From positions 1 through 41,181 of the IMG/VR virus record IMGVR_UViG_3300031825_000032: 41,181 nucleotides of DNA; one strand, 5' to 3'. The DNA comes from a virus. The notes beneath the pieces are model-generated. The model was not told the DNA's origin and made no database searches. It saw only the letters and a program-made list of their open reading frames with translations. This document shows positions 8,551-41,181 of the stretch, piece after piece. The stretch's first letter is position 1, and the number at the start of each line of letters is the position of its first letter. The position numbers and the translations under genes are program-made.

Positions 8551-9338
8551 CCGATTGGGTGCGCCTATGGCACGACATGCCGACCGACCCAAAGTGGCGC
8601 GTCATTGCCCGCAAGAGCGGCCAACCGCTTCCGTGCGTGCTGTCCGTATTCGTTCTGATGATGGCGAACGCATCAGGGAACGCATCGGAACGCGGGCATC
8701 TCAGCGCATGGGATCATGAGGACGCGGCAGCCGCGTTGGATATGGACGAAGAGGCCGTGCAGGCGATTTACGAGGCCATGCAGGGCAAGGTTCTCGAAGG
8801 AACGTATTTGACAGGCTGGGAGAAGCGCCAGCCAAAACGTGAGGATTCGACCGCATTTAAGCGGAAAGCTGAGTGGAAAGAGAGAAAGAAGAACGCATCG
8901 GAACGCAGTGGAACGCAAGGGAACGCACCAGATGCAGATTCAGATGCAGATATATCCGATGCTGACGCATCGGGCGCCGAAGCGCCGGTGGACCTTGCCA
9001 AGGCGCTTTTCGATTCCGCAGTGCCTTACCTCGTTACCCACGGCAGCAAGGAAAAGAACGCTCGGTCGATGGTCGCGAGTTGGCGGAAGACGCACGGCGA
9101 CGGCCCGGTGATCGACGCTGTTGCTGCCGCACAGCGAAACGCCGTCAGCGAGCCAATTCCGTTTATAATCAAGTATCTGGAACGAAAAGATGGACAGCAG
9201 ACCCGTGGTTTACAGCGCAATGCGCCCCCGCCAGCAAACCCCCTCCTCGCCGCCGCAATCCGTCGATACGGGAACCGCGATAGCCCAGACGGTGGCCTTG
9301 ATTTCGGTGCTTCCGTCGCGCCAACAGGGGGGCATTGA
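8547..9338 (+). CDS. Replication-initiator-like protein (lambda O-like role) carrying internal iterons
   Basis: ATGA overlap. N-terminal WVRLWHDMPTDPKWRVIA pattern, acidic middle region, iteron arrays inside the gene. Confidence 0.55.
   Translation: MTDWVRLWHDMPTDPKWRVIARKSGQPLPCVLSVFVLMMANASGNASERGHLSAWDHEDAAAALDMDEEAVQAIYEAMQGKVLEGTYLTGWEKRQPKREDSTAFKRKAEWKERKKNASERSGTQGNAPDADSDADISDADASGAEAPVDLAKALFDSAVPYLVTHGSKEKNARSMVASWRKTHGDGPVIDAVAAAQRNAVSEPIPFIIKYLERKDGQQTRGLQRNAPPPANPLLAAAIRRYGNRDSPDGGLDFGASVAPTGGH
8666..8694. repeat. Iteron cluster 1: three (G)GAACGC(A/G) boxes
   Basis: gaacgca at 8666-8672, ggaacgca at 8677-8684, ggaacgcg at 8687-8694. Confidence 0.7.
8891..8951. repeat. Iteron cluster 2: four GAACGCA boxes at exact 10-bp phase, followed by 2x CAGATGCAGAT and ATATAT
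   Basis: gaacgca at 8891, 8901, 8911 and 8921; cagatgcagat at 8929 and 8941. Confidence 0.8.
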
Positions 9339-28956: not shown

Positions 28957-29456
28957 GCGCCAAGCTCTATGCATGGAGCGCGGCCGCTATGGTCACGTTG
29001 GCAACCCCACTTGTGGCTGAGTGGGAAGGTTACAGCCTCAAGCCTCGCTGGGACCGGATCGGCGGCGTCATGGACGTGTGCTACGGCGACACCGAAGCCG
29101 AGATGCGCGAACACACGAAGGCCGAATGCCTGGGGCTTTTGCGCATCCAGCTCAGCAAGCGCGGGGACGCCATCGCCAAGTGCGTACCGGGCCTTGTGGA
29201 GCGGCCGACAGTTTGGGCGGCGGGTACGTCATTGGCGTATAATGTCGGCGTTCCCGCATTCTGCAACAGCACCGCCGCGCGCCGGTTCAACGCCGGCAAC
29301 TGGATCGGCGGCTGCGAAGCGTTCAAGATGTGGGTCAAGGCCGGCGGTAAGTACGTCCAAGGTCTCGCCAATCGCCGATATGCCGCGAACGACGGGCGGA
29401 TTCCCGAATACACCATCTGCATGTTGGGCCTTGGCGCGAATGTGAGCGTTGCATGA
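28953..29456 (+). CDS. GH24 phage lysozyme, probably SAR-type endolysin
   Basis: GTGA overlap. AAAMVTLATPLVAEWEGYSLKPRWDRIGGVMDVCYGDT has the catalytic E...D...T layout. Confidence 0.85.
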   Translation: MSAKLYAWSAAAMVTLATPLVAEWEGYSLKPRWDRIGGVMDVCYGDTEAEMREHTKAECLGLLRIQLSKRGDAIAKCVPGLVERPTVWAAGTSLAYNVGVPAFCNSTAARRFNAGNWIGGCEAFKMWVKAGGKYVQGLANRRYAANDGRIPEYTICMLGLGANVSVA

Positions 29457-29896
29457 CCGCCCTCCGCTACTGGCGCGAGGCCCTGTTCGTCGCGTTCGTG
29501 ATCCCGCTGACGTTCGTCTGCTGGGTGCGGGGGGAGCAACTGGATGCCGCGAAGGAGTGGCAGGGCAGTGTGATCGCAGCGCTCACCGAAGCGTCGGGCG
29601 CGGAGAATCCTGTCGCAAAAAAGAACGTGACGGCGGGCATTCGCGCTCTCGGCAAGTCGGTTGACCGGCTCACGGTCGCGGTCGCTGAACAGAACGCCGC
29701 CGTCGCCACACTCGCGCGCACGGCGGCAGAGAGGCAGAAAGCATCACAGGATGCGCTACGGGCTGCGGAGAAGCGCAACGAGGCGCTGGCGGGCAAGATT
29801 GCCGGTCTGGAGCGTAGCGCGTCTATACGGCGCTCTGACGGGGTTGTGTGCGAGGTGAGCGAGGCTGTTAGCGAGGTGTGGGCGTCCAACCCGTGA
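29453..29896 (+). CDS. i-spanin (Rz-like)
   Basis: ATGA overlap. N-terminal TM (ALFVAFVIPLTFVCWV) followed by coiled coil. Confidence 0.7.
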   Translation: MTALRYWREALFVAFVIPLTFVCWVRGEQLDAAKEWQGSVIAALTEASGAENPVAKKNVTAGIRALGKSVDRLTVAVAEQNAAVATLARTAAERQKASQDALRAAEKRNEALAGKIAGLERSASIRRSDGVVCEVSEAVSEVWASNP

Positions 29897-30053
29897 GCAG
29901 AGCCTCAACCAGCACCTCGACAGGCCCCGGTATCTCGCGGTCGCCCGCCTCCCATTTGCGGATGGTGCGCGCATCACAGCGCATCAACGCAGCGAGCCCG
30001 GCCTGCGTTAGGCCGAGCTGCTGGCGACTTGTCTTAAAGGCCGTTGGCTGCAT
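29868..30053 (-). CDS. Small XRE-family HTH regulator, 61 aa (Aca-like or immunity-like)
   Basis: LGLTQAGLAALMRCDARTIRKWEAGDREIP. Overlaps the small upstream ORF by 20 nt and the i-spanin 3' end by 29 nt. Confidence 0.75.
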   Translation of the reverse strand: MQPTAFKTSRQQLGLTQAGLAALMRCDARTIRKWEAGDREIPGPVEVLVEALLTGWTPTPR

Positions 30054-30216
30054 CGCACGCCTGCAAGGTCACATCGTTGCCGTTCATGTCCAGCACGCGG
30101 CGCAGGTTGCCCGTGTGGGCGGACTGGTAGACCTTGCCGGCCGCTTTCAGCGTGCGGTGACGAGAAACCAGCGAAGTGTCCTGCTGTTCGGCGTTCGCGT
30201 AAACCGTGTACTGCAT
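30034..30216 (-). CDS. Small ORFan, 60 aa (MQYTVYANAEQQDTSLVSRHRTLKAAGKVYQSAHTGNLRRVLDMNGNDVTLQACDAANGL)
   Basis: GGGAGA SD 6 nt before ATG 30216. First gene of the two-gene minus-strand operon. Confidence 0.6.
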   Translation of the reverse strand: MQYTVYANAEQQDTSLVSRHRTLKAAGKVYQSAHTGNLRRVLDMNGNDVTLQACDAANGL

Positions 30217-30263: not shown

Positions 30264-30292
30264 TACATAGGCCCATTGGGCCGCACGTGCAA
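30264..30292 (-). promoter_or_regulatory. Promoter of the small-ORF/HTH operon: TTGCAC-N17-TATGTA, with palindromes in the spacer
   Basis: Plus gtgcaa at 30287-30292 and tacata at 30264-30269. GGCCCATTGGGCC at 30270-30282, GCACGTGC at 30283-30290, GGGCTGAGCCC at 30238-30248. Confidence 0.55.
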
Positions 30293-30304
30293 GGACTAAA
30301 TGCG

Positions 30305-30559
30305 ATGCGCGCGATTTTTTTTCTGCTGCTCCTCGGGGCCTGCGCTTCCAAGCCCGCAATTGAAGTCCGAACGGTGCGTGTCGAGGTGCCGGTGCCGGTT
30401 GCGTGCGTTGCGGCTGCCGATGTTCCCGAGCGCCCCGGTCCGCTTCCACCGCGTCCAGAGGATGCACGGCAGGCGCTTGATCTGGCTGTCGCGAAGGTGC
30501 TGGAATGGGTTGGTTATGGCGAACGGGCGGATGCGGTGCTGCGGGGGTGCACTGAGTAG
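30305..30559 (+). CDS. Lipoprotein, o-spanin (Rz1-like) candidate, 84 aa
   Basis: MRAIFFLLLLGAC lipobox. Pro-rich mature part with Cys residues. AAGGA SD. Confidence 0.6.
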   Translation: MRAIFFLLLLGACASKPAIEVRTVRVEVPVPVACVAAADVPERPGPLPPRPEDARQALDLAVAKVLEWVGYGERADAVLRGCTE

Positions 30560-30742: not shown

Positions 30743-31171
30743 CTACTCGGGCGCTCCGCGCGCTATAGCCTCGGCGACAGCTTTGACACCAAATATTCGG
30801 GAGGCTCTCATCTGATCGTCTAGCGACAGTTCACGGACAAGATCAGAGAAGCTCGGGCGCTCGCTTTTCATCGCCACTCGCCACACTATACCGCGGTCCT
30901 GATCTTCACGCATCCCGGTCCGAAACGCCTCTTGGATACCAGCGTCGTCCTTGCCATCCCTAAACGCATCGACAGCGCGGGCCATTGCCATGTCAGGATA
31001 CCCAGGCGGGCTGTCAAACGGATCACGGCGCGGCTGTCCAAGAGCCCCGTTTCCGACATGCACCGGGACCGCCATCTTGGCCCAGCAATACGACTGAAGG
31101 GCCTGCGCTTCGCTTTTCCCGCTGCGCAAGGTATCGATCAGGACTTTGATGTTCGGGTCGATGTCAGTCAT
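30743..31171 (-). CDS. Hypothetical protein, 142 aa (last gene of the accessory block)
   Basis: ATG 31171. The longer TTG-initiated extension to 31363 looks non-coding. Confidence 0.55.
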   Translation of the reverse strand: MTDIDPNIKVLIDTLRSGKSEAQALQSYCWAKMAVPVHVGNGALGQPRRDPFDSPPGYPDMAMARAVDAFRDGKDDAGIQEAFRTGMREDQDRGIVWRVAMKSERPSFSDLVRELSLDDQMRASRIFGVKAVAEAIARGAPE

Positions 31172-31451
31172 CCTCGTATCCCAATAAGCGCATAAAGCGC
31201 GTTTATGCGGTAAGTGCTGAGGCCGATCCAACACCGCCAGACCGGCCTCGAATGCTCTTCCTGCGCATGGCAGGCGAGACCTCCGCACCACTTCCCCGTT
31301 CGCGACCGGGCTGGCAGGTGCCGCCGATAGTTGGGTTGCGTCCGTTGTTGCACCGGCCCTCAATTCGGAACCGCCACACGCAATCGGGCGGGCCTACTTC
31401 CTGGTCCCTAACCAGCGTCAGGGGCACGCACCCGTGCCGCCGCAAACCACC

Positions 31452-31841
31452 TCACCCACTACCAGAATCCGCAGATTCCGGCAAGGGTGGGGTGATGGCC
31501 GCGAGCATAGCTTGCCAGACACGCTTGGCTTCCCGTTTCTGCAGTACGGACGGCCCGCCCATGTATACGGTGCAGGGTGGTGTGCCGCCAGCGTTGAGCA
31601 TATCATCTCCCGGCTCTCTCAGCCTCTCCAGCACAGTGCGGATGGCTGCGTCGGCTTTCTTGAGGGTTGCTTCGATTTCAGGGCCGTGCGTCTGATCGGC
31701 GTAGTGGCGCGCAGTTTCATCGTCGTGACCTTGCGACAGGCAAAAGTTCACCATTTCATCCCAATACCAGAATGGACGCGGATCTATCGCCCGCGCCACG
31801 GCCTCGCGCATCGTCTCAGGGCCATCCTTATCCATGTTCAT
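31452..31841 (-). CDS. Hypothetical protein, 129 aa
   Basis: ORF track; ATGA overlap with the upstream gene. Confidence 0.6.
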   Translation of the reverse strand: MNMDKDGPETMREAVARAIDPRPFWYWDEMVNFCLSQGHDDETARHYADQTHGPEIEATLKKADAAIRTVLERLREPGDDMLNAGGTPPCTVYMGGPSVLQKREAKRVWQAMLAAITPPLPESADSGSG

Positions 31842-32239
31842 GCTCCTTTGTTGAAGTAGCAGTCCTTAAACACAAGATCACTTACAACTTCGTAATCCAC
31901 CAATGGGAAAAGGCCGCTTTCAACTTGCTCCACCTTATCACGATATTTATTGCTTATCATTATATCCATCAATTGAATTTCAGATGGTTGGTTGTTAAAA
32001 CCATCAACAAAGCTCCCTACGACGACAAAGTAAAGATTTTTGCGAACTATTATTTTGGGCGAGAATAGCGTTAAGTTGCCAAGTTCAATGCTTGACTGCA
32101 CCCACCACGGTTTTTCCCCATCTAAAAGAAATTGCACATTTTCAGGAGTTAGTGTTATACTTTCAAATATCGGCGGCTTTAATGTTAGTTTGGTTATTTT
32201 AAGGCCGTGCTCGCTCGTCGCTTCGTCGTCGCTCATCAT
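31838..32239 (-). CDS. AT-rich foreign ORFan, 133 aa
   Basis: ORF track. The DNA is visibly far more AT-rich than all neighbours. Start region is duplicated at 32637-32668. Confidence 0.65.
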   Translation of the reverse strand: MMSDDEATSEHGLKITKLTLKPPIFESITLTPENVQFLLDGEKPWWVQSSIELGNLTLFSPKIIVRKNLYFVVVGSFVDGFNNQPSEIQLMDIMISNKYRDKVEQVESGLFPLVDYEVVSDLVFKDCYFNKGA

Positions 32240-32259
32240 TCAGCCTTTCTCATGCTGCG
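32228..32259. repeat. 32-nt junction repeat, copy 1
   Basis: gtcgctcatcattcagcctttctcatgctgcg; 29 of 32 positions identical to 32637-32668. Confidence 0.85.
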
Positions 32260-32463
32260 ATGCCTTGTTAGGGAGTACTTCGCGCGGTTAATGGCGCGGT
32301 TGCGAATGGGATTCAGGATCGCCGTGGCTTGGGCGAGGCGATGCTTGGCGTCCGCACTGGCGCGTAATGCGTCGTCTACAATCACCCGCTCATCCTCAGT
32401 CAACCAATCCAGCCAAGGCCACTTTTGCCTTTTCGGTTGCCATCCTTGTGAGGGGCTGGTCAC
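32236..32463 (-). CDS. Hypothetical basic protein, 75 aa
   Basis: ORF track; overlaps on both sides. Confidence 0.5.
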   Translation of the reverse strand: MTSPSQGWQPKRQKWPWLDWLTEDERVIVDDALRASADAKHRLAQATAILNPIRNRAINRAKYSLTRHRSMRKAE

Positions 32464-32648
32464 GACTTGCGCTCCAGTTGCCAGCTATAAAGCTGGCGGG
32501 TTGTCGTCGCCATGCAACCGCATTCGTGTCCGCCGCAGCAGTACGGCGCATCAAGCTCGCGTTGCCAAATCTGCTCTCGCCATTCTTCGAACGAGCATCG
32601 GAGCAGCGCGGCCAGAAGGCGTAGCTTGAATATCGTGTCGCTCATCAT
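32460..32648 (-). CDS. Small Cys-rich protein, 62 aa (CCGGHECGC)
   Basis: AAGGAG SD, tandem ATGs. Confidence 0.55.
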   Translation of the reverse strand: MMSDTIFKLRLLAALLRCSFEEWREQIWQRELDAPYCCGGHECGCMATTTRQLYSWQLERKS

Positions 32649-32668
32649 TCACTCCTTCTCATGCTGCG
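32637..32668. repeat. 32-nt junction repeat, copy 2
   Basis: gtcgctcatcattcactccttctcatgctgcg. Confidence 0.85.
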
Positions 32669-32685
32669 TGGGGGATGGAGGGCTG

Positions 32686-33333
32686 TCATGCCGCCACAGC
32701 CTCTACGATCGGCGCATCCGCCTCGGGGAAGCTTCGGCGCCGTAGCTGCCTACACACGGCTCGCGCGATTTCCTTGCCTGTCATGTTCCAGGCCATCTCA
32801 CGGATGAGCCACGGCACAGTTGCGCGTGAGCCGGCGGCGATGCGGTGGACAAAGGCCTCTTCGAGCAATTCAGCGCGCCAGCACAGTTCCAGCAGTCTGG
32901 CGGCGTGAGGCTGCGCCCGTCCGTACGACCATGGCTTCAGGTTCCATTGGCCATAGTTCGGGCGCTCGGCGATCTCAGGGTAGCCCCACAGCTCTACAGG
33001 CTCGCTGTTGTACGCGTCCCGGAGTTCGTCGGACGGCACAAATCGAGGCATCCCGTTGTTGTACGGCGTGCGGTCAAACCACCGTTCGTGGGCCACAACC
33101 ACCACGTTATGTGACGCGCGCACGAACTGCCTGACCTGCTCCGGCAGCCGCTTCAGTGTATCGCGTTCTGACTTGATTTCGACCAACGTGATGCGCTCAG
33201 CCTCAATGGCGGCAAGGTCCGCGCGGCAACCTCCCACGACAAGCTCGTGGACGACGCGCGCAGCGGGCAGCATCTGCCGCAACCGGTTCGCGGCGTAGTC
33301 GCGGATTTCCCGTTCGGACGCTGACCCGGCCAT
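32686..33333 (-). CDS. PD-(D/E)XK nuclease-fold protein (MmcB/sce7726-like flavour), 215 aa
   Basis: GGCRADLAAIEAERITLVEIKSERDTLKRLPEQVRQF shows the D...E-x-K core. GGGAGGG SD. Confidence 0.6.
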   Translation of the reverse strand: MAGSASEREIRDYAANRLRQMLPAARVVHELVVGGCRADLAAIEAERITLVEIKSERDTLKRLPEQVRQFVRASHNVVVVAHERWFDRTPYNNGMPRFVPSDELRDAYNSEPVELWGYPEIAERPNYGQWNLKPWSYGRAQPHAARLLELCWRAELLEEAFVHRIAAGSRATVPWLIREMAWNMTGKEIARAVCRQLRRRSFPEADAPIVEAVAA

Positions 33334-33394
33334 CAGCCCGCCCTCCCAATGTCCGCACTTCTCCCGTAACCTAAGCGCTCGGCCATGATGGTCA

Positions 33395-33625
33395 TTACCC
33401 CTCCACCAACGCGGGATCGGCGATCAGGATGGCGCGTACTGCGCGGCCCAGATCGGTCAGATCATCGTCGCCGGAAACCCAGGACGGGTGCGATGTGACA
33501 AATGCATTCAAGTCGCTTTCATATCCCACCGAGGCTTCAAATGGTGGATTAGCGCCAAGAAAGCGGCGCGCGTCACGGCTCATCCATTGGATCGCCTCTT
33601 CGGCCTCGCGCTCAATCTTTGTCAT
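33395..33625 (-). CDS. Hypothetical protein, 76 aa; first gene of the accessory operon
   Basis: ATG 33625 with GGAGGCAAGG SD. Confidence 0.55.
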   Translation of the reverse strand: MTKIEREAEEAIQWMSRDARRFLGANPPFEASVGYESDLNAFVTSHPSWVSGDDDLTDLGRAVRAILIADPALVEG

Positions 33626-33631
33626 CTGTCC

Positions 33632-33695
33632 TTGCCTCCGTATCCGATAACGCATATCTATAGACGATAACGGGTATAGTCAATAGGCGATAACG
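33632..33695. promoter_or_regulatory. Divergent, fully overlapping promoter pair with three CGATAACG direct repeats
   Basis: Plus promoter is TTGCCT (33632-37)-N17-TATCTA (33655-60). Minus promoter is TTGACT (33678-83)-N17-TAGATA on the same hexamer. Boxes at 33645-52, 33665-72 and 33688-95; a fourth GATAACGG lies at 33724-31. Confidence 0.5.
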
Positions 33696-33703
33696 GAAAC
33701 TTT

Positions 33704-33895
33704 ATGGACTTGGCACAAAAAGAGATAACGGATACCCCGTCGCGCATGGGTCGTCCGCCGATAGGAAAGTTCACCGCCGTCCGCCTGCCGGACGAAACGC
33801 TCGTGCGCATCGACGCGCTGGTGGCGAAGGGTAAGCGCGCCGACTTCATCCGTGAGGCCGTGGAGCGAGAGCTGGAGCGGCGGGAGCAGGAATAG
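33704..33895 (+). CDS. Ribbon-helix-helix (CopG/Arc/Mnt-type) regulator, 63 aa
   Basis: GRPPIGKFTAVRLPDETLVRIDALVAKGKRADFIREAVERELERRE. Confidence 0.8.
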   Translation: MDLAQKEITDTPSRMGRPPIGKFTAVRLPDETLVRIDALVAKGKRADFIREAVERELERREQE

Positions 33896-34003
33896 TCCGC
33901 ACTTCGCCCGTAACCCATTGATATACGCCTGTGGACAACCCTGTGTGTCCGCAGAAATATCGTTACGATACCGAGCGCGAGGTCGGCTTTTGGTACCGCC
34001 ATG

Positions 34004-34032
34004 CGGAGGTTCGAATCCTCCCGCCCCAGCCA
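34004..34032 (+). other. attP core candidate: 3' fragment of a tRNA (T-arm + acceptor + CCA), tRNA-Pro-like
   Basis: cggaggttcgaatcctcccgccccagcca. No matching 5' acceptor strand upstream, so this is not a whole tRNA. Lies close to int. Confidence 0.6.
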
Positions 34033-34039
34033 AGCGTTT

Positions 34040-34357
34040 TCAAGCACTTGCATGTTTATCCCCGCTGTTATCCCGATACCCGTCCGCAGTTTTTTCCGCA
34101 ATCTCATCAGCCTGTGGGGGTGCGGGTAGGGCTTGCCAGTAGGCCACGTCCGTGCGCGATATCCAAACATCATCCTCGCTCATTCCAGCGGTCCAGTCGC
34201 ACCAGCTGTAGCTCTCTACGTCCCCGACTCCAGCGTAGACGTCACCCCAAAAGCCGACGAATATGTGCGTCTCGTAATCTTCTCTGTGCGCCTTACGGAG
34301 CAGAAGTAGCATTTGATTGTTCTTCGGCGCCGTCTCAATCGGTTGCCACTCACCCAT
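34040..34357 (-). CDS. DUF551-like protein, 105 aa
   Basis: WQPIETAPKNN... and ...VAYWQALPAPP motifs. Overlaps the int stop by 8 nt. Confidence 0.65.
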   Translation of the reverse strand: MGEWQPIETAPKNNQMLLLLRKAHREDYETHIFVGFWGDVYAGVGDVESYSWCDWTAGMSEDDVWISRTDVAYWQALPAPPQADEIAEKTADGYRDNSGDKHASA

Positions 34358-35414
34358 GAGCCTTCTCCTTCATCCTCCGCGCCTCCAGCTTCGCCACAGC
34401 ATTATCCGACAGGCTTGCGGTCATCGCCTGATACGTGTCCAGCATGGCGTTCACGGTCTGCACGGTCCAGCCGAGAACGGCAGCGATTTCCTGCGGTGTG
34501 CAGCCCGCCTCCGATAGCGTCGTGCAGGTCGTGCCGCGCAGGTCATGGAAGTGCAGGCCGTCGCACCCGGCAGCGAGCGTCGCCTTGCGCCAGTGGTGCT
34601 GGAACGTGATCTGATGCCACGGCTTGTTGCCGGGCCCGGCGAGGATGGTGGCGCATGTGCGCGGCGCGGCGTCGAGGACGGCTTTCAGGGACTGCGTGAC
34701 AGGCATATCGACGAGCCGGTGGCGCTTGCCCTGCCGGAACCGGATGCGCGTTCCGTCATAGCTGGACCATGCCAGCTTGAGCACATCGGCCTGCCTCTGC
34801 CCCGTGCCTAGCGCCAATTCGAACGCGAGGCGCATGTCGGCGGGGGCCGATTCGCGGAACCGCTCGATGTGCGGCGGAAGCCATAGCTTGTCCGATCGGT
34901 CGGCCCGGTACACCTTCTTTGGCCGGATCGCGTGGTTGATGCCGATGCGCCCGCGATTCCTCGCCCACTCCAGCACGACGCGCAGGACGGCCATTGTGCT
35001 GTCGGCCTGCCGCGGGGACGCCTTGGCGAGCGTGTCGCGCCAGTCGAGGAACCGGCTGCGGATTTTCGGGTCTTCGATCGCTGCGAGCGGGTAGTTGCCG
35101 AACTTCGCCTCGATCCGGGCGATGTGCTTCAGGTAGTCGGCTTTCGTGCGCGGTGCGAGGCGGGTATAGTCGGCCGACTTCGTGTAGTCGTGCGTCAGTT
35201 CTTTCAGCGTGCCGGAGCGGCTGGCCTTGATCGGCGCATGGATCGCGTCATTGTACGCGCGCATGAACGCAGGCGTGCCGGGCGCGAAAGCCTCGCTCTC
35301 GTCGCCGGGGAGGGGGCGCAGGGCGCCGAAGCCGCGCAGGTACCAGTAGACGGCCACCTTGCCGCCCTTGCGCGCCTTACGCGTCTCATAGACCCCTTTA
35401 AGCCGCGTGCGCAT
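34350..35414 (-). CDS. int: Tyrosine integrase
   Basis: GTGQRQADV (Arg), HFHDLRGT (H-x-x-R), LDTYQ (Tyr). ATG 35414 (the ORF opens at TTG 35429). Confidence 0.92.
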   Translation of the reverse strand: MRTRLKGVYETRKARKGGKVAVYWYLRGFGALRPLPGDESEAFAPGTPAFMRAYNDAIHAPIKASRSGTLKELTHDYTKSADYTRLAPRTKADYLKHIARIEAKFGNYPLAAIEDPKIRSRFLDWRDTLAKASPRQADSTMAVLRVVLEWARNRGRIGINHAIRPKKVYRADRSDKLWLPPHIERFRESAPADMRLAFELALGTGQRQADVLKLAWSSYDGTRIRFRQGKRHRLVDMPVTQSLKAVLDAAPRTCATILAGPGNKPWHQITFQHHWRKATLAAGCDGLHFHDLRGTTCTTLSEAGCTPQEIAAVLGWTVQTVNAMLDTYQAMTASLSDNAVAKLEARRMKEKAHG

Positions 35415-35649
35415 TCTCGTATTCCTCAAGGGGCGATAGCTTCCGCCCGCCCGTTATGCCCTGCTTACGATCGAGCAGGTAGTCATGCGCCTTCACGTCA
35501 TAGCGCGTGGTGCCGGGGACGGGGCCGGGGACGAGCCCGCGATTGTGCCATGTGTCATAGGTCGCATGGCTGATGCCGCCCAGATATTCGCAGATACCGT
35601 CCTTGGTCTGGAGGCGGTGCGCGGGGTCGTAGCGTCGGTCAGCGCCCAT
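35398..35649 (-). CDS. xis: Excisionase-like small HTH protein, 83 aa
   Basis: ATG 35649 with GAGGGAG SD. ICEYLGGISHATYDTWHNRGLVPGPV. Directly upstream of and overlapping int. Confidence 0.65.
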   Translation of the reverse strand: MGADRRYDPAHRLQTKDGICEYLGGISHATYDTWHNRGLVPGPVPGTTRYDVKAHDYLLDRKQGITGGRKLSPLEEYENAHAA

Positions 35650-35791
35650 CGTCTCTCTCCCTCGGCGAGAGGATGGTCGGATAACTTTCAAGCGCAAGCC
35701 GGTCCTGCCGGTTCAGGTGCCAGCCGTAGAACACGATGATGAAGAGGGCGGCGATCAATCCCGCCGCGATCCCTTTCGCAAGCTCGCCCAT
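35639..35791 (-). CDS. Single-TM peptide, 50 aa
   Basis: ATG 35791 with AAGGAGGGG SD. IAAGLIAALFIIVFYGW TM segment. Confidence 0.5.
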   Translation of the reverse strand: MGELAKGIAAGLIAALFIIVFYGWHLNRQDRLALESYPTILSPRERDDGR

Positions 35792-41023: not shown

Positions 41024-41181
41024 CACTTCACCTCTTGGGAAAGGATGGCGTCGATCTTCGTCCACGTACTGGATTCGATCGCGCCGTTTATGTTCATCGG
41101 ATTCGCCAGACGTATCTCCCGCAACGCCTCCAGCGCTTTGCCAAGCAGGTCAGCCTCGGCAGCTTCGATAGCGCGCTCACC
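41023..41181 (-). CDS. 3' end of the junction-spanning gene listed at 1-361 (duplicate view caused by the 127-bp overlap)
   Basis: The frame from ATG 361 continues through 41181 to 41055 (identical to 127 to 1) and on to TGA 41023-41025. Ends SQEVK*. Confidence 0.6.
   Translation of the reverse strand, partial: GERAIEAAEADLLGKALEALREIRLANPMNINGAIESSTWTKIDAILSQEVK
41055..41181. repeat. Right copy of the 127-bp terminal overlap
   Basis: Base-for-base identical to 1-127. Confidence 0.97.

Follow-up and report, generated by a model that had tools for sequence, protein, structure and literature searches.

The block of small minus-strand genes at positions 30,743 to 33,625 of IMG/VR virus record IMGVR_UViG_3300031825_000032 (a stretch of 41,181 nucleotides, called the window below) lies beside the phage attachment site (attP) of a temperate phage, and it can be set against several described loci. 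In phage lambda, the b region (ea47/ea31/ea59) holds non-essential genes to the left of attP that are read from the early-left transcript. In the immI region of phage P22, as in the window, a gene for a ribbon-helix-helix (RHH) protein diverges from an operon of small genes, with operators over the promoter, and the locus stands outside the main immunity region, near the att end of the map. In P4, the Gop-beta-cII locus protects E. coli against lambda and P1 and resembles a toxin-antitoxin or abortive-infection locus, Gop being its toxic part (PMC9122126; bioRxiv 10.1101/2023.04.06.535777). The block in the window is of a known kind, namely cargo of accessory genes at a prophage end with a gene of the P4 cII family as its anchor, and we consider it reasonably probable that it is a fast-evolving accessory block of the lambda b-region type, with an RHH-gated promoter beside attP. 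An initial annotation, made from the sequence alone, had described a seven-gene operon with an RHH-guarded promoter, a candidate island for defence, anti-defence or second immunity in which no member could be assigned to a described system. That unassignable island is replaced here by a concrete anatomy, consisting of the cII-family gene, a delimited RHH-promoter cassette and junction repeats.

The gene that connects the block with P4 encodes a protein of 215 amino acids (aa). It is listed here with the elements that lie between it and attP, including short open reading frames (ORFs):

33984..34032, plus strand: attP core, a copy of the 3' half of a tRNA-Gln(UUG) gene (anticodon loop to CCA), read from the sequence
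33895..33915, plus strand: 21-nt element, attP-proximal copy (GTCCGCACTTCGCCCGTAACC), from a repeat search
33704..33895, plus strand: gene for a predicted 63-aa RHH repressor, directed towards attP, with RHH profile matches
33626..33735, no strand: divergent control region, with GATAACG direct repeats and a TTGACT -35-like hexamer (minus strand)
33395..33625, minus strand: gene for a 76-aa acidic protein (isoelectric point, pI, 4.4), first leftward gene and partner of the RHH gene, with GGAGG 9 nt upstream
33351..33371, plus strand: 21-nt element, distal copy inside the 20-codon ORF, from a repeat search
33333..33395, minus strand: 20-codon bridging ORF, an open reading frame
32686..33333, minus strand: gene for the 215-aa PD-(D/E)XK protein, P4 cII / sce7726 family (PF26915)

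Profile searches with the 215-aa protein returned phrog_984 (E = 4e-22) and the PADLOC profile 'cll' (E = 1.4e-10, over residues 19-87), which stands for the cII component of P4 Gop-beta-cII, and PF26915 (Phage_P4_cII) was already precomputed for this exact sequence. The NCBIfam family sce7726 (NF033832) reached 63.1 bits against a cut-off of 70, over the N-terminal half only, and Pfam MmcB-like (PF06319) scored 17.1 bits, under its cut-off of 22. When a 51-member family profile was aligned to P4 cII with hhalign, the probability was 98.2% (E = 5.8e-14, 173 columns, 22% identity), with residues 6-201 pairing with residues 6-184 of P4 cII across both the PD-(D/E)XK domain and a helical C-terminal domain. 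A large protein search yielded 111 homologues, 110 of them with PF26915 and one carrying PF06319 and PF26915 together; the named sources were Sphingomonas, Sphingobium, Afifella, Kaistia and Chelatococcus. From these sequence matches we are confident that the 215-aa protein belongs to the P4 cII / sce7726 family, and in this respect the earlier statement that no member of the block could be assigned to a described system does not hold, even though Gop-beta-cII is incomplete here.

The nuclease fold proposed for this protein was borne out by the family matches, by an invariant motif and by the AlphaFold 2 (AF2) model. Residues E30, D39, E52 and K54 are invariant in the 51 sequences, and the model (predicted local distance difference test, pLDDT, 94.6) runs through a helix at 5-21, strands at 26-33, 36-43 and 48-54, a helix at 63-73 and a strand at 76-82, placing an E...D...(D/E)xK motif on an alpha-beta-beta-beta-alpha-beta core. 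The top Foldseek matches of the model were PD-(D/E)XK nucleases (AF1548, EndoMS/NucS, Bax1, SfsA and Hjc), all of them weak (E of at least 2e-3, template modelling score about 0.3), so the protein has no close solved relative; a PDB sequence search with the family profile likewise gave nothing meaningful. Motif and model together suggest that the protein is a DNA-processing nuclease which would act in early development or around lysogeny.

A PADLOC 'cll' match alone is not evidence of a Gop-beta-cII system, and the remaining components were not found. Gop had no PADLOC match at E <= 0.1 in the other ORFs of the block or in the RHH, 105-aa and integrase (int) proteins beside it; beta had no PADLOC match either, and no ORF of the block comes near the 355 aa of P4 beta. 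As PADLOC matched nothing else in or around the block, the system is incomplete here, in contrast to P4, which carries gop and beta. Both cII genes share the strand of int and are no more than one or two genes away from int/attP, but P4 cII follows int and stays on its side of attP; the 215-aa gene lies across attP. The proteins also differ in length, with 215 aa in the alphaproteobacterial branch and 264 aa in P4 cII.

The settings of cII-like genes elsewhere are varied (percentages give identity to the 215-aa protein). In P4 (22%, by profile alignment) cII follows int on the same strand, and in a Sphingomonadales prophage from a metagenome-assembled genome (MAG; L057, 67%) a long early operon is followed by the cII-like gene, DUF1643, a 60-aa gene, int and host DNA. 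Ochrobactrum phage POI1126 (33%) has a methylase, the cII-like gene, two genes and int, and L044 (80%) has, in this order along the contig, HNH, RecT, the cII-like gene and a weak int. In Sphingobium prophage L056 and Agrobacterium phage Atu_ph08 (58% and 41%, respectively) the gene stands between a C5 methylase and, one or two genes on, the large terminase; L011 has a C5 methylase, the cII-like gene and then terminase, and in Caulobacter phage Sansa (35%) the gene falls between a helicase and a primase. Among the three nearest genes per side at 21 IMG/VR loci we counted eight DNA methylases, together with DnaB, primases, ThyX, a Lar-like protein, small and large terminases and one integrase, and none of the other genes of the block was co-conserved with the family in 22 IMG/VR loci. 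The 215-aa family is an ordinary phage early gene, common and with no fixed partner. The claim that no gene of the block is needed for any recognisable phage function was thus too strong, given this recurrent early gene and, in a much thinner context, the family of the 129-aa protein described below.

The closest architectural match to the window is a Sphingomonas MAG prophage (L046, cII-like protein 72% identical), in which host genes are followed by a 230-bp spacer, the cII-like gene and four small genes, one of which belongs to the 129-aa family (E = 4e-7). This block converges on a GH108 lysis cassette, just as the block of the window converges on its lysis genes. Another relative, L030, has an integrase 65% identical to that of the window and the same attP, and the exact position of the 215-aa gene is taken there by an MmcB-like gene (PF06319, 26.8 bits, cut-off 22). 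MmcB-like proteins and the 215-aa protein share the same nuclease core, and BLASTP detected no similarity between the 215-aa protein and the MmcB-like protein of L030. All that the slot has in common with the window is a nuclease-type first gene in L030 and L046, plus the gene of the 129-aa family in L046. The comparison across relatives that the initial annotation had called for thus showed a variable slot in L030 and L046, and L028 differed at the position of the 105-aa ORF. A further relative, L029, was rejected for this comparison, as its att core is inverted relative to int and host DNA lies beyond it.

The RHH gene and the 76-aa gene form the other main part of the locus. The RHH gene matched phrog_4738 'transcriptional repressor' (E = 3.2e-6), NCBIfam YlcI/YnfO (27 bits, cut-off 30, E = 3.4e-6) and Pfam RHH_1 (19.2 bits, cut-off 20.5, E = 1.2e-3), and its product is 59-60% identical to those of RHH genes paired with homologues of the 76-aa protein in the contigs L038-L041 and L050. 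A control region of 78 bp separates the two genes. Exact copies of CGATAACG start at 33645, 33665 and 33688, with a fourth near-copy at 33723, as GATAACG direct repeats, and three of the four exact copies in the whole window fall between the RHH and 76-aa genes, so placed that they may be predicted to be operator half-sites repeated at a divergent promoter. On the minus strand of the spacer TTGACT is followed 15-17 nt on by TATAGATA; a terminator-like site at 33741-33727 (minus strand) is within chance expectation. The 76-aa ORF could be extended to 86 aa, up to 33655, where it lacks a Shine-Dalgarno sequence. Its product has a handful of homologues, with 63-81% pairwise identity, and no family in Pfam, PHROGs, NCBIfam or PADLOC.

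The pair recurs in other genomes as a unit. In the Logan contigs L038-L041 the 76-aa homologue is again divergent from an RHH gene (59% identical), and L050, a 45-kb IMG/VR phage contig, shows the order integrase, attP, RHH gene (reverse strand), 76-aa homologue and cargo (DUF6283, DUF4326). The attP of L050 is a different tRNA 3' end, and its integrase and cargo are unrelated to those of the window; the topology is the same. Nucleotide homology of L038 and L050 to the window (66%) covers exactly 33392-33886 or 33392-33890, and in both contigs the control region holds, in the same place, three to four direct repeats of a motif of its own. The 76-aa gene of L043 and that of L048 have no RHH gene with them.

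The boundaries of this homology coincide with a repeat. The 21-nt repeat GTCCGCACTTC(T/G)CCCGTAACC has two matches in the window, against 0.11 expected by chance, and its copies flank the cassette homology immediately on both sides. In L030 the homology that runs from the integrase through attP ends at 33894; a single related 21-nt copy follows, then, about 20 nt beyond, the MmcB-like PD-(D/E)XK gene, and after it at least nine small ORFs on the same strand. On the other side, the homology shared with L046 sets in at 33339, which is 6 nt before the start of the 215-aa gene. L030 is an empty site for the cassette. The simplest reading of these junctions is that the RHH/76-aa unit is a separately acquired cassette of 0.5 kb, and the 20-codon ORF is probably a remnant of the junction. 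The duplicated cassette junctions noted previously, of 21 nt here and of 32 nt among the small genes, are real and beyond chance. The RHH-guarded seven-gene operon was not borne out as such: an RHH gene does stand at a divergent control region, but it forms a separate cassette with the 76-aa gene, and the 142-aa gene at the far end looks like a unit of its own.

Other functions for the pair were considered and rejected. A toxin-antitoxin pair was discarded on the grounds that the genes are divergent instead of co-directional and that no toxin family was matched, and the 63-aa RHH protein was not retained as an excisionase, given a separate xis-like ORF at the start of int and the absence of the cassette from relatives.

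Some further observations concern the relatives of the cassette. In L038-L041 (for example L038 3-1495) the RHH gene overlaps by 4 nt the start of a same-strand gene for an ISL3-family transposase, and the RHH protein may also regulate this transposase, or travel with it. In L050, 17-nt direct repeats, CTGTACG(G/C)G(A/G)TTTGTAC, at 840-856 and 1069-1085 surround the tRNA-like attP core and, judged by sequence, look like arm-type sites of the integrase; the RHH gene ends directly at the second copy. In L043, GAGATTGAGCTTAG occurs at 190-215 and 490-515, ahead of two adjoining small genes, one the 76-aa homologue and the other a Cys-rich ORF, and gives another example of junction or initiation sequences that are repeated between small genes of phages.

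The likeness to the lambda b region lies in position and variability. In both, non-essential-looking genes stand just beyond attP and are co-directional with xis-int, a layout found also in L030; in both, integration would leave them at the prophage end opposite int, by the late genes, and their content is variable. There is no sequence homology between the two, and the window, unlike lambda, has an RHH gene on the opposite strand and a private control region interposed. Transcription from the early-left side is a feature of the b region, and for the window we propose it by analogy. The neighbouring genes on the int side are these:

34040..35697, minus strand: 99-aa putative xis, 359-aa tyrosine integrase and the 105-aa ORF, which run in the direction of the block as far as attP

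On the minus strand, an early-left run of small genes, including an HNH endonuclease gene, leads into xis-int, the 105-aa ORF and the block, so that in the circular genome the block is directly downstream of xis-int across attP on the same strand. On its other side are the lysis genes, with the lysozyme gene at 28989-29456, beside which the block would come to lie after integration. The homologous nuclease genes of relatives are also in line with int. The initial annotation had placed the block outside the CI-controlled operons; the strand arrangement, if anything, speaks for continuity of the block with the early-left operon.

With the b-region-like accessory block as the preferred reading, the history of the locus would be as follows. 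The ancestral order would have been int, attP, the 21-nt element, the nuclease gene and small genes, and the 0.5-kb RHH/76-aa cassette would have been inserted later, between attP and the nuclease gene. The RHH protein is predicted to bind the GATAACG repeats, which would result in autoregulation and in gating of the leftward 76-aa gene and the genes behind it, and the cassette would thereby give the block a putative promoter, of TTGAC(N) type, that remains active once integration severs the promoter of the int operon. The 62-, 75-, 133-, 129- and 142-aa ORFs would undergo fast turnover, being swapped in at short conserved junctions, with the 133-aa gene as a recent AT-rich import that may have used a duplicated region of ribosome-binding site (RBS) and start codon. 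The 215-aa gene, with its intact catalytic E-D-ExK core, would be the conserved anchor.

Several points weigh against this reading. The three matches of the RHH protein are weak, those of Pfam and NCBIfam falling below the curated cut-offs; the minus-strand promoter was read by eye and is not among the calls of a consensus scan. Instead of being insertion scars, the 21-bp repeats could have a function, for example as sites where a protein binds, and the empty site is represented by a single relative, L030, whose nuclease is of the different, MmcB-like branch. Lambda is the basis for assuming that CI controls the upstream operon and that transcripts read through attP, and Pfam and PHROGs did not identify the main repressor of the phage. 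A site at the prophage end with a private repressor is, moreover, typical of defence cargo as well.

A defence, anti-defence or second-immunity role, as put forward initially, is possible but unsupported, with no such assignment coming from PADLOC, PHROGs, Pfam, NCBIfam, PDB or fold searches. The block might be a prophage defence or abortive-infection island, in which the cII-family nuclease would serve as sensor or effector, one or more of the small proteins would replace Gop and beta, and the whole, repressed by the RHH protein and expressed at the prophage end, would exclude superinfecting phages. The 215-aa protein is, after all, a homologue of the cII of Gop-beta-cII, which protects against lambda and P1 (PMC9122126), the site at the prophage end has a divergent repressor gene of its own, the slot is variable and compositionally foreign, and the small partners are acidic. 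However, PADLOC found neither Gop nor beta nor any other defence protein in the block, the toxic component in P4 is Gop and not cII (PMC9122126), genes of the cII family are found alone at early, methylase, replication and terminase-proximal spots in many phages, with no conserved neighbour, and the RHH/76-aa cassette recurs with wholly different cargo; we therefore regard such an island as unlikely. A role in counter-defence or host takeover, with the small acidic 76-, 129- and 133-aa proteins inhibiting host defence or repair early on, through read-through from early-left and int, would agree with the position of the block downstream of the early-left operon and co-directional with it, with the small, acidic and fast-evolving nature of its proteins, with the presence of the 129-aa family in series of small genes on one strand, as is usual for early operons of phages, and with the methylases and Lar-like gene near 215-aa homologues. 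It is nevertheless quite improbable in our view, as no known anti-defence protein was matched in PHROGs or Pfam, the fold searches were without a match, and any read-through transcript would run antisense to the inserted RHH gene.

The remaining alternatives assign the central role to the cassette itself. If the locus were a second-immunity region like immI of P22, the RHH protein would act as a maintenance repressor similar to Mnt, and the 76-aa protein as a small antirepressor or Arc-like regulator that inactivates the main repressor or controls induction. The geometry of mnt versus arc-ant (divergent RHH gene, repeated operators over the promoter, small first gene) is indeed present, the RHH/76-aa pair is conserved as a unit whose operator motifs co-vary, and two phages whose integrases are unrelated have it immediately next to attP. 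Unlike in P22, no Ant or Arc homologue was found among the proteins of the block in Pfam, PHROGs or NCBIfam, and the 76-aa protein matched no antirepressor, Arc or other family in these libraries or PADLOC; the operators of the window are three to four direct repeats, unlike those of immI; and the cassette is found beside an ISL3 transposase gene, its 76-aa gene also without an RHH gene, and elsewhere with different cargo. Its absence from the close relatives L030 and L046 argues that it is not part of the core lysis-lysogeny circuit, and all this makes an immI-type locus very unlikely. Finally, there is a small chance, below that which we give the defence island and above that of counter-defence, that the RHH/76-aa unit is a portable, self-regulated switch which lands repeatedly beside attP, as observed in the window and in L050 with unrelated integrases and tRNA targets, and which would control either induction, through an antirepressor, or exclusion by the cII nuclease and interchangeable small partners, independently of Gop and beta. 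Were this so, the widespread and uncharacterised P4-cII family would gain a defined role. A solved function for the family would annotate a gene of many temperate phages and of P4, and the cassette offers a tractable model for the way in which prophage-end cargo acquires a regulated promoter of its own.

The small genes behind the 215-aa gene are arranged as follows:

32637..32668, minus strand: 32-nt junction repeat, copy 2, covering the RBS and first codons (MMSD) of the 62-aa gene
32460..32648, minus strand: gene for a 62-aa protein with 5 Cys
32236..32463, minus strand: 75-aa basic ORF, pI 10.9, of uncertain coding status
32228..32259, minus strand: 32-nt junction repeat, copy 1, covering the end of the 75-aa ORF and the MMSD start of the AT-rich gene
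31838..32239, minus strand: AT-rich gene for a 133-aa protein
31452..31841, minus strand: gene for a 129-aa acidic, all-helical protein (predicted)
31172..31451, no strand: 280-bp non-coding gap with a palindrome
30743..31171, minus strand: 142-aa ORFan

All ORFs of the initial annotation, their sizes and the 280-bp gap were recovered, and the descriptions of the 62-aa protein as Cys-rich (5 Cys), of the 75-aa protein as basic (pI 10.9) and of the 133-aa gene as AT-rich (40% GC, against 60% for the window) were accurate. The GC content of the second codon position is the lowest of the three in all ORFs of the block except the 20-codon ORF, as expected of coding sequence, and that of the third position is 0.64-0.75 in the block, against 0.78-0.86 in the integrase and lysis genes. 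On the near-identical genome of an ENA contig, an independent gene caller predicted genes for 76, 215, 61, 133, 127 and 142 aa, and neither the 20-codon nor the 75-aa ORF. The 76-, 129- and 133-aa proteins are acidic.

The two copies of the 32-nt repeat are 91% identical and take in the RBS and the four opening codons (MMSD) of the 62-aa and 133-aa genes. The 133-aa AT-rich gene thus begins with a duplicated initiation region of normal GC content, which marks a recombination junction, and the junction repeats show a route by which small accessory genes are exchanged. Neither the 133-aa nor the 62-aa protein has a close relative in IMG/VR, nor the 133-aa protein in JGI metagenomes, and neither matched a family (for the 62-aa protein, in four hidden Markov model libraries); these scans detect close relatives only, and the term ORFan is therefore firm for the 142-aa protein alone, for which a word-indexed search of 5.8 billion proteins returned only itself and no family was matched. 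The 75-aa ORF had no match in the four libraries, beyond which no search of it was made.

For the 129-aa protein, 80 homologues at E <= 1e-3 were found among 1.84 billion representatives, mostly of 90-130 aa and occasionally as repeats within larger proteins; three of them lie in runs of small same-strand genes, on contigs of 1-2 kb only. The AF2 model is all-helical and confident over most of its length (pLDDT 84). No Pfam family was matched, a PDB sequence search with the family profile gave nothing meaningful, and a fold search of the model against PDB and BFVD had no match at E < 0.1. The 142-aa gene behind the 280-bp gap is probably a separate transcription unit. The gap itself showed no Rfam match and no unusual folding (z = 0.32). 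Within it, 10-40 nt upstream of the RBS of the 142-aa gene, there is a palindrome at 31182-31216, GCATAAA-N5-TTTATGC (CAATAAGCGCATAAA / TTTATGCGGTAAGTG), with 15-nt arms and a 5-nt spacer, which may be an operator or a terminator.

As to the genome as a whole, the window is a temperate phage genome. Positions 1-127 are identical to 41055-41181, and this exact terminal overlap of 127 nt indicates a circular genome of 41,054 bp; the ENA contig mentioned above, ERZ27250632 k141_569985, holds the near-identical genome circularly permuted relative to the window. The phage is alphaproteobacterial, its host probably a sphingomonad. At the DNA level, the region and 25 kb of the window had no match among 50,697 GenBank phages, and a lysozyme-based search for relatives with the same slot from lysis to att returned one distant Paracoccaceae MAG contig only.

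The attP core at 33984-34032 reads ...TTTTGGTACCGCCATGCGGAGGTTCGAATCCTCCCGCCCCAGCCA, and ARAGORN found no complete tRNA there. Its 25-nt 3' end also adjoins the integrases of L029 and L030 (65% identical), and an anticodon stem-loop of ACGGT/TTTTGGT/ACCGT in L029 gave the identity tRNA-Gln(UUG). In the Logan assembly of SRR9007495 the contig L005 stops precisely at the CCA of attP, a break to be expected if the core is repeated in the host genome. The tRNA 3' half, its conservation in L029 and L030 and the assembly break at CCA together show that the attP is real. In the prophage L029 (9159-9207) the same tRNA-Gln 3' fragment has the opposite orientation to int from that seen in the window and in L030, so related integrases use the same core in opposite attP orientation. 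The earlier description of the block as accessory, non-structural, compositionally mosaic and adjacent to int and attP proved sound.

The tyrosine integrase (34350-35429) matched Pfam Phage_integrase (E = 1.4e-15) and phrog_1, and the small basic 99-aa ORF that overlaps its start looks by eye like xis, with no match in Pfam. Between int and attP, the 105-aa acidic ORF (34040-34357) showed a weak match to DUF551/phrog_924. Its place is taken in L028 (integrase 94% identical) by an unrelated ORF of 68 aa (9069-9274), and L030 has no ORF at this position, so that the int side of attP holds a second, small variable slot.

A small module was also observed in the lysis genes of the window. At 29868-30216, two minus-strand genes (a 60-aa ORF, then an overlapping 61-aa ORF resembling HTH_3/HTH_31) sit inside the plus-strand lysis cassette, between 29453-29896 and 30287-30559, and separate the 147-aa gene that follows the lysozyme gene from a 90-aa lipoprotein-like ORF (lipobox LLLGAC), which from its sequence may be read as spanin-like. 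The module could be a small inserted moron or a pair of toxin-antitoxin type. In L022, the cII-like gene is directly preceded by a relative of the 60-aa ORF.

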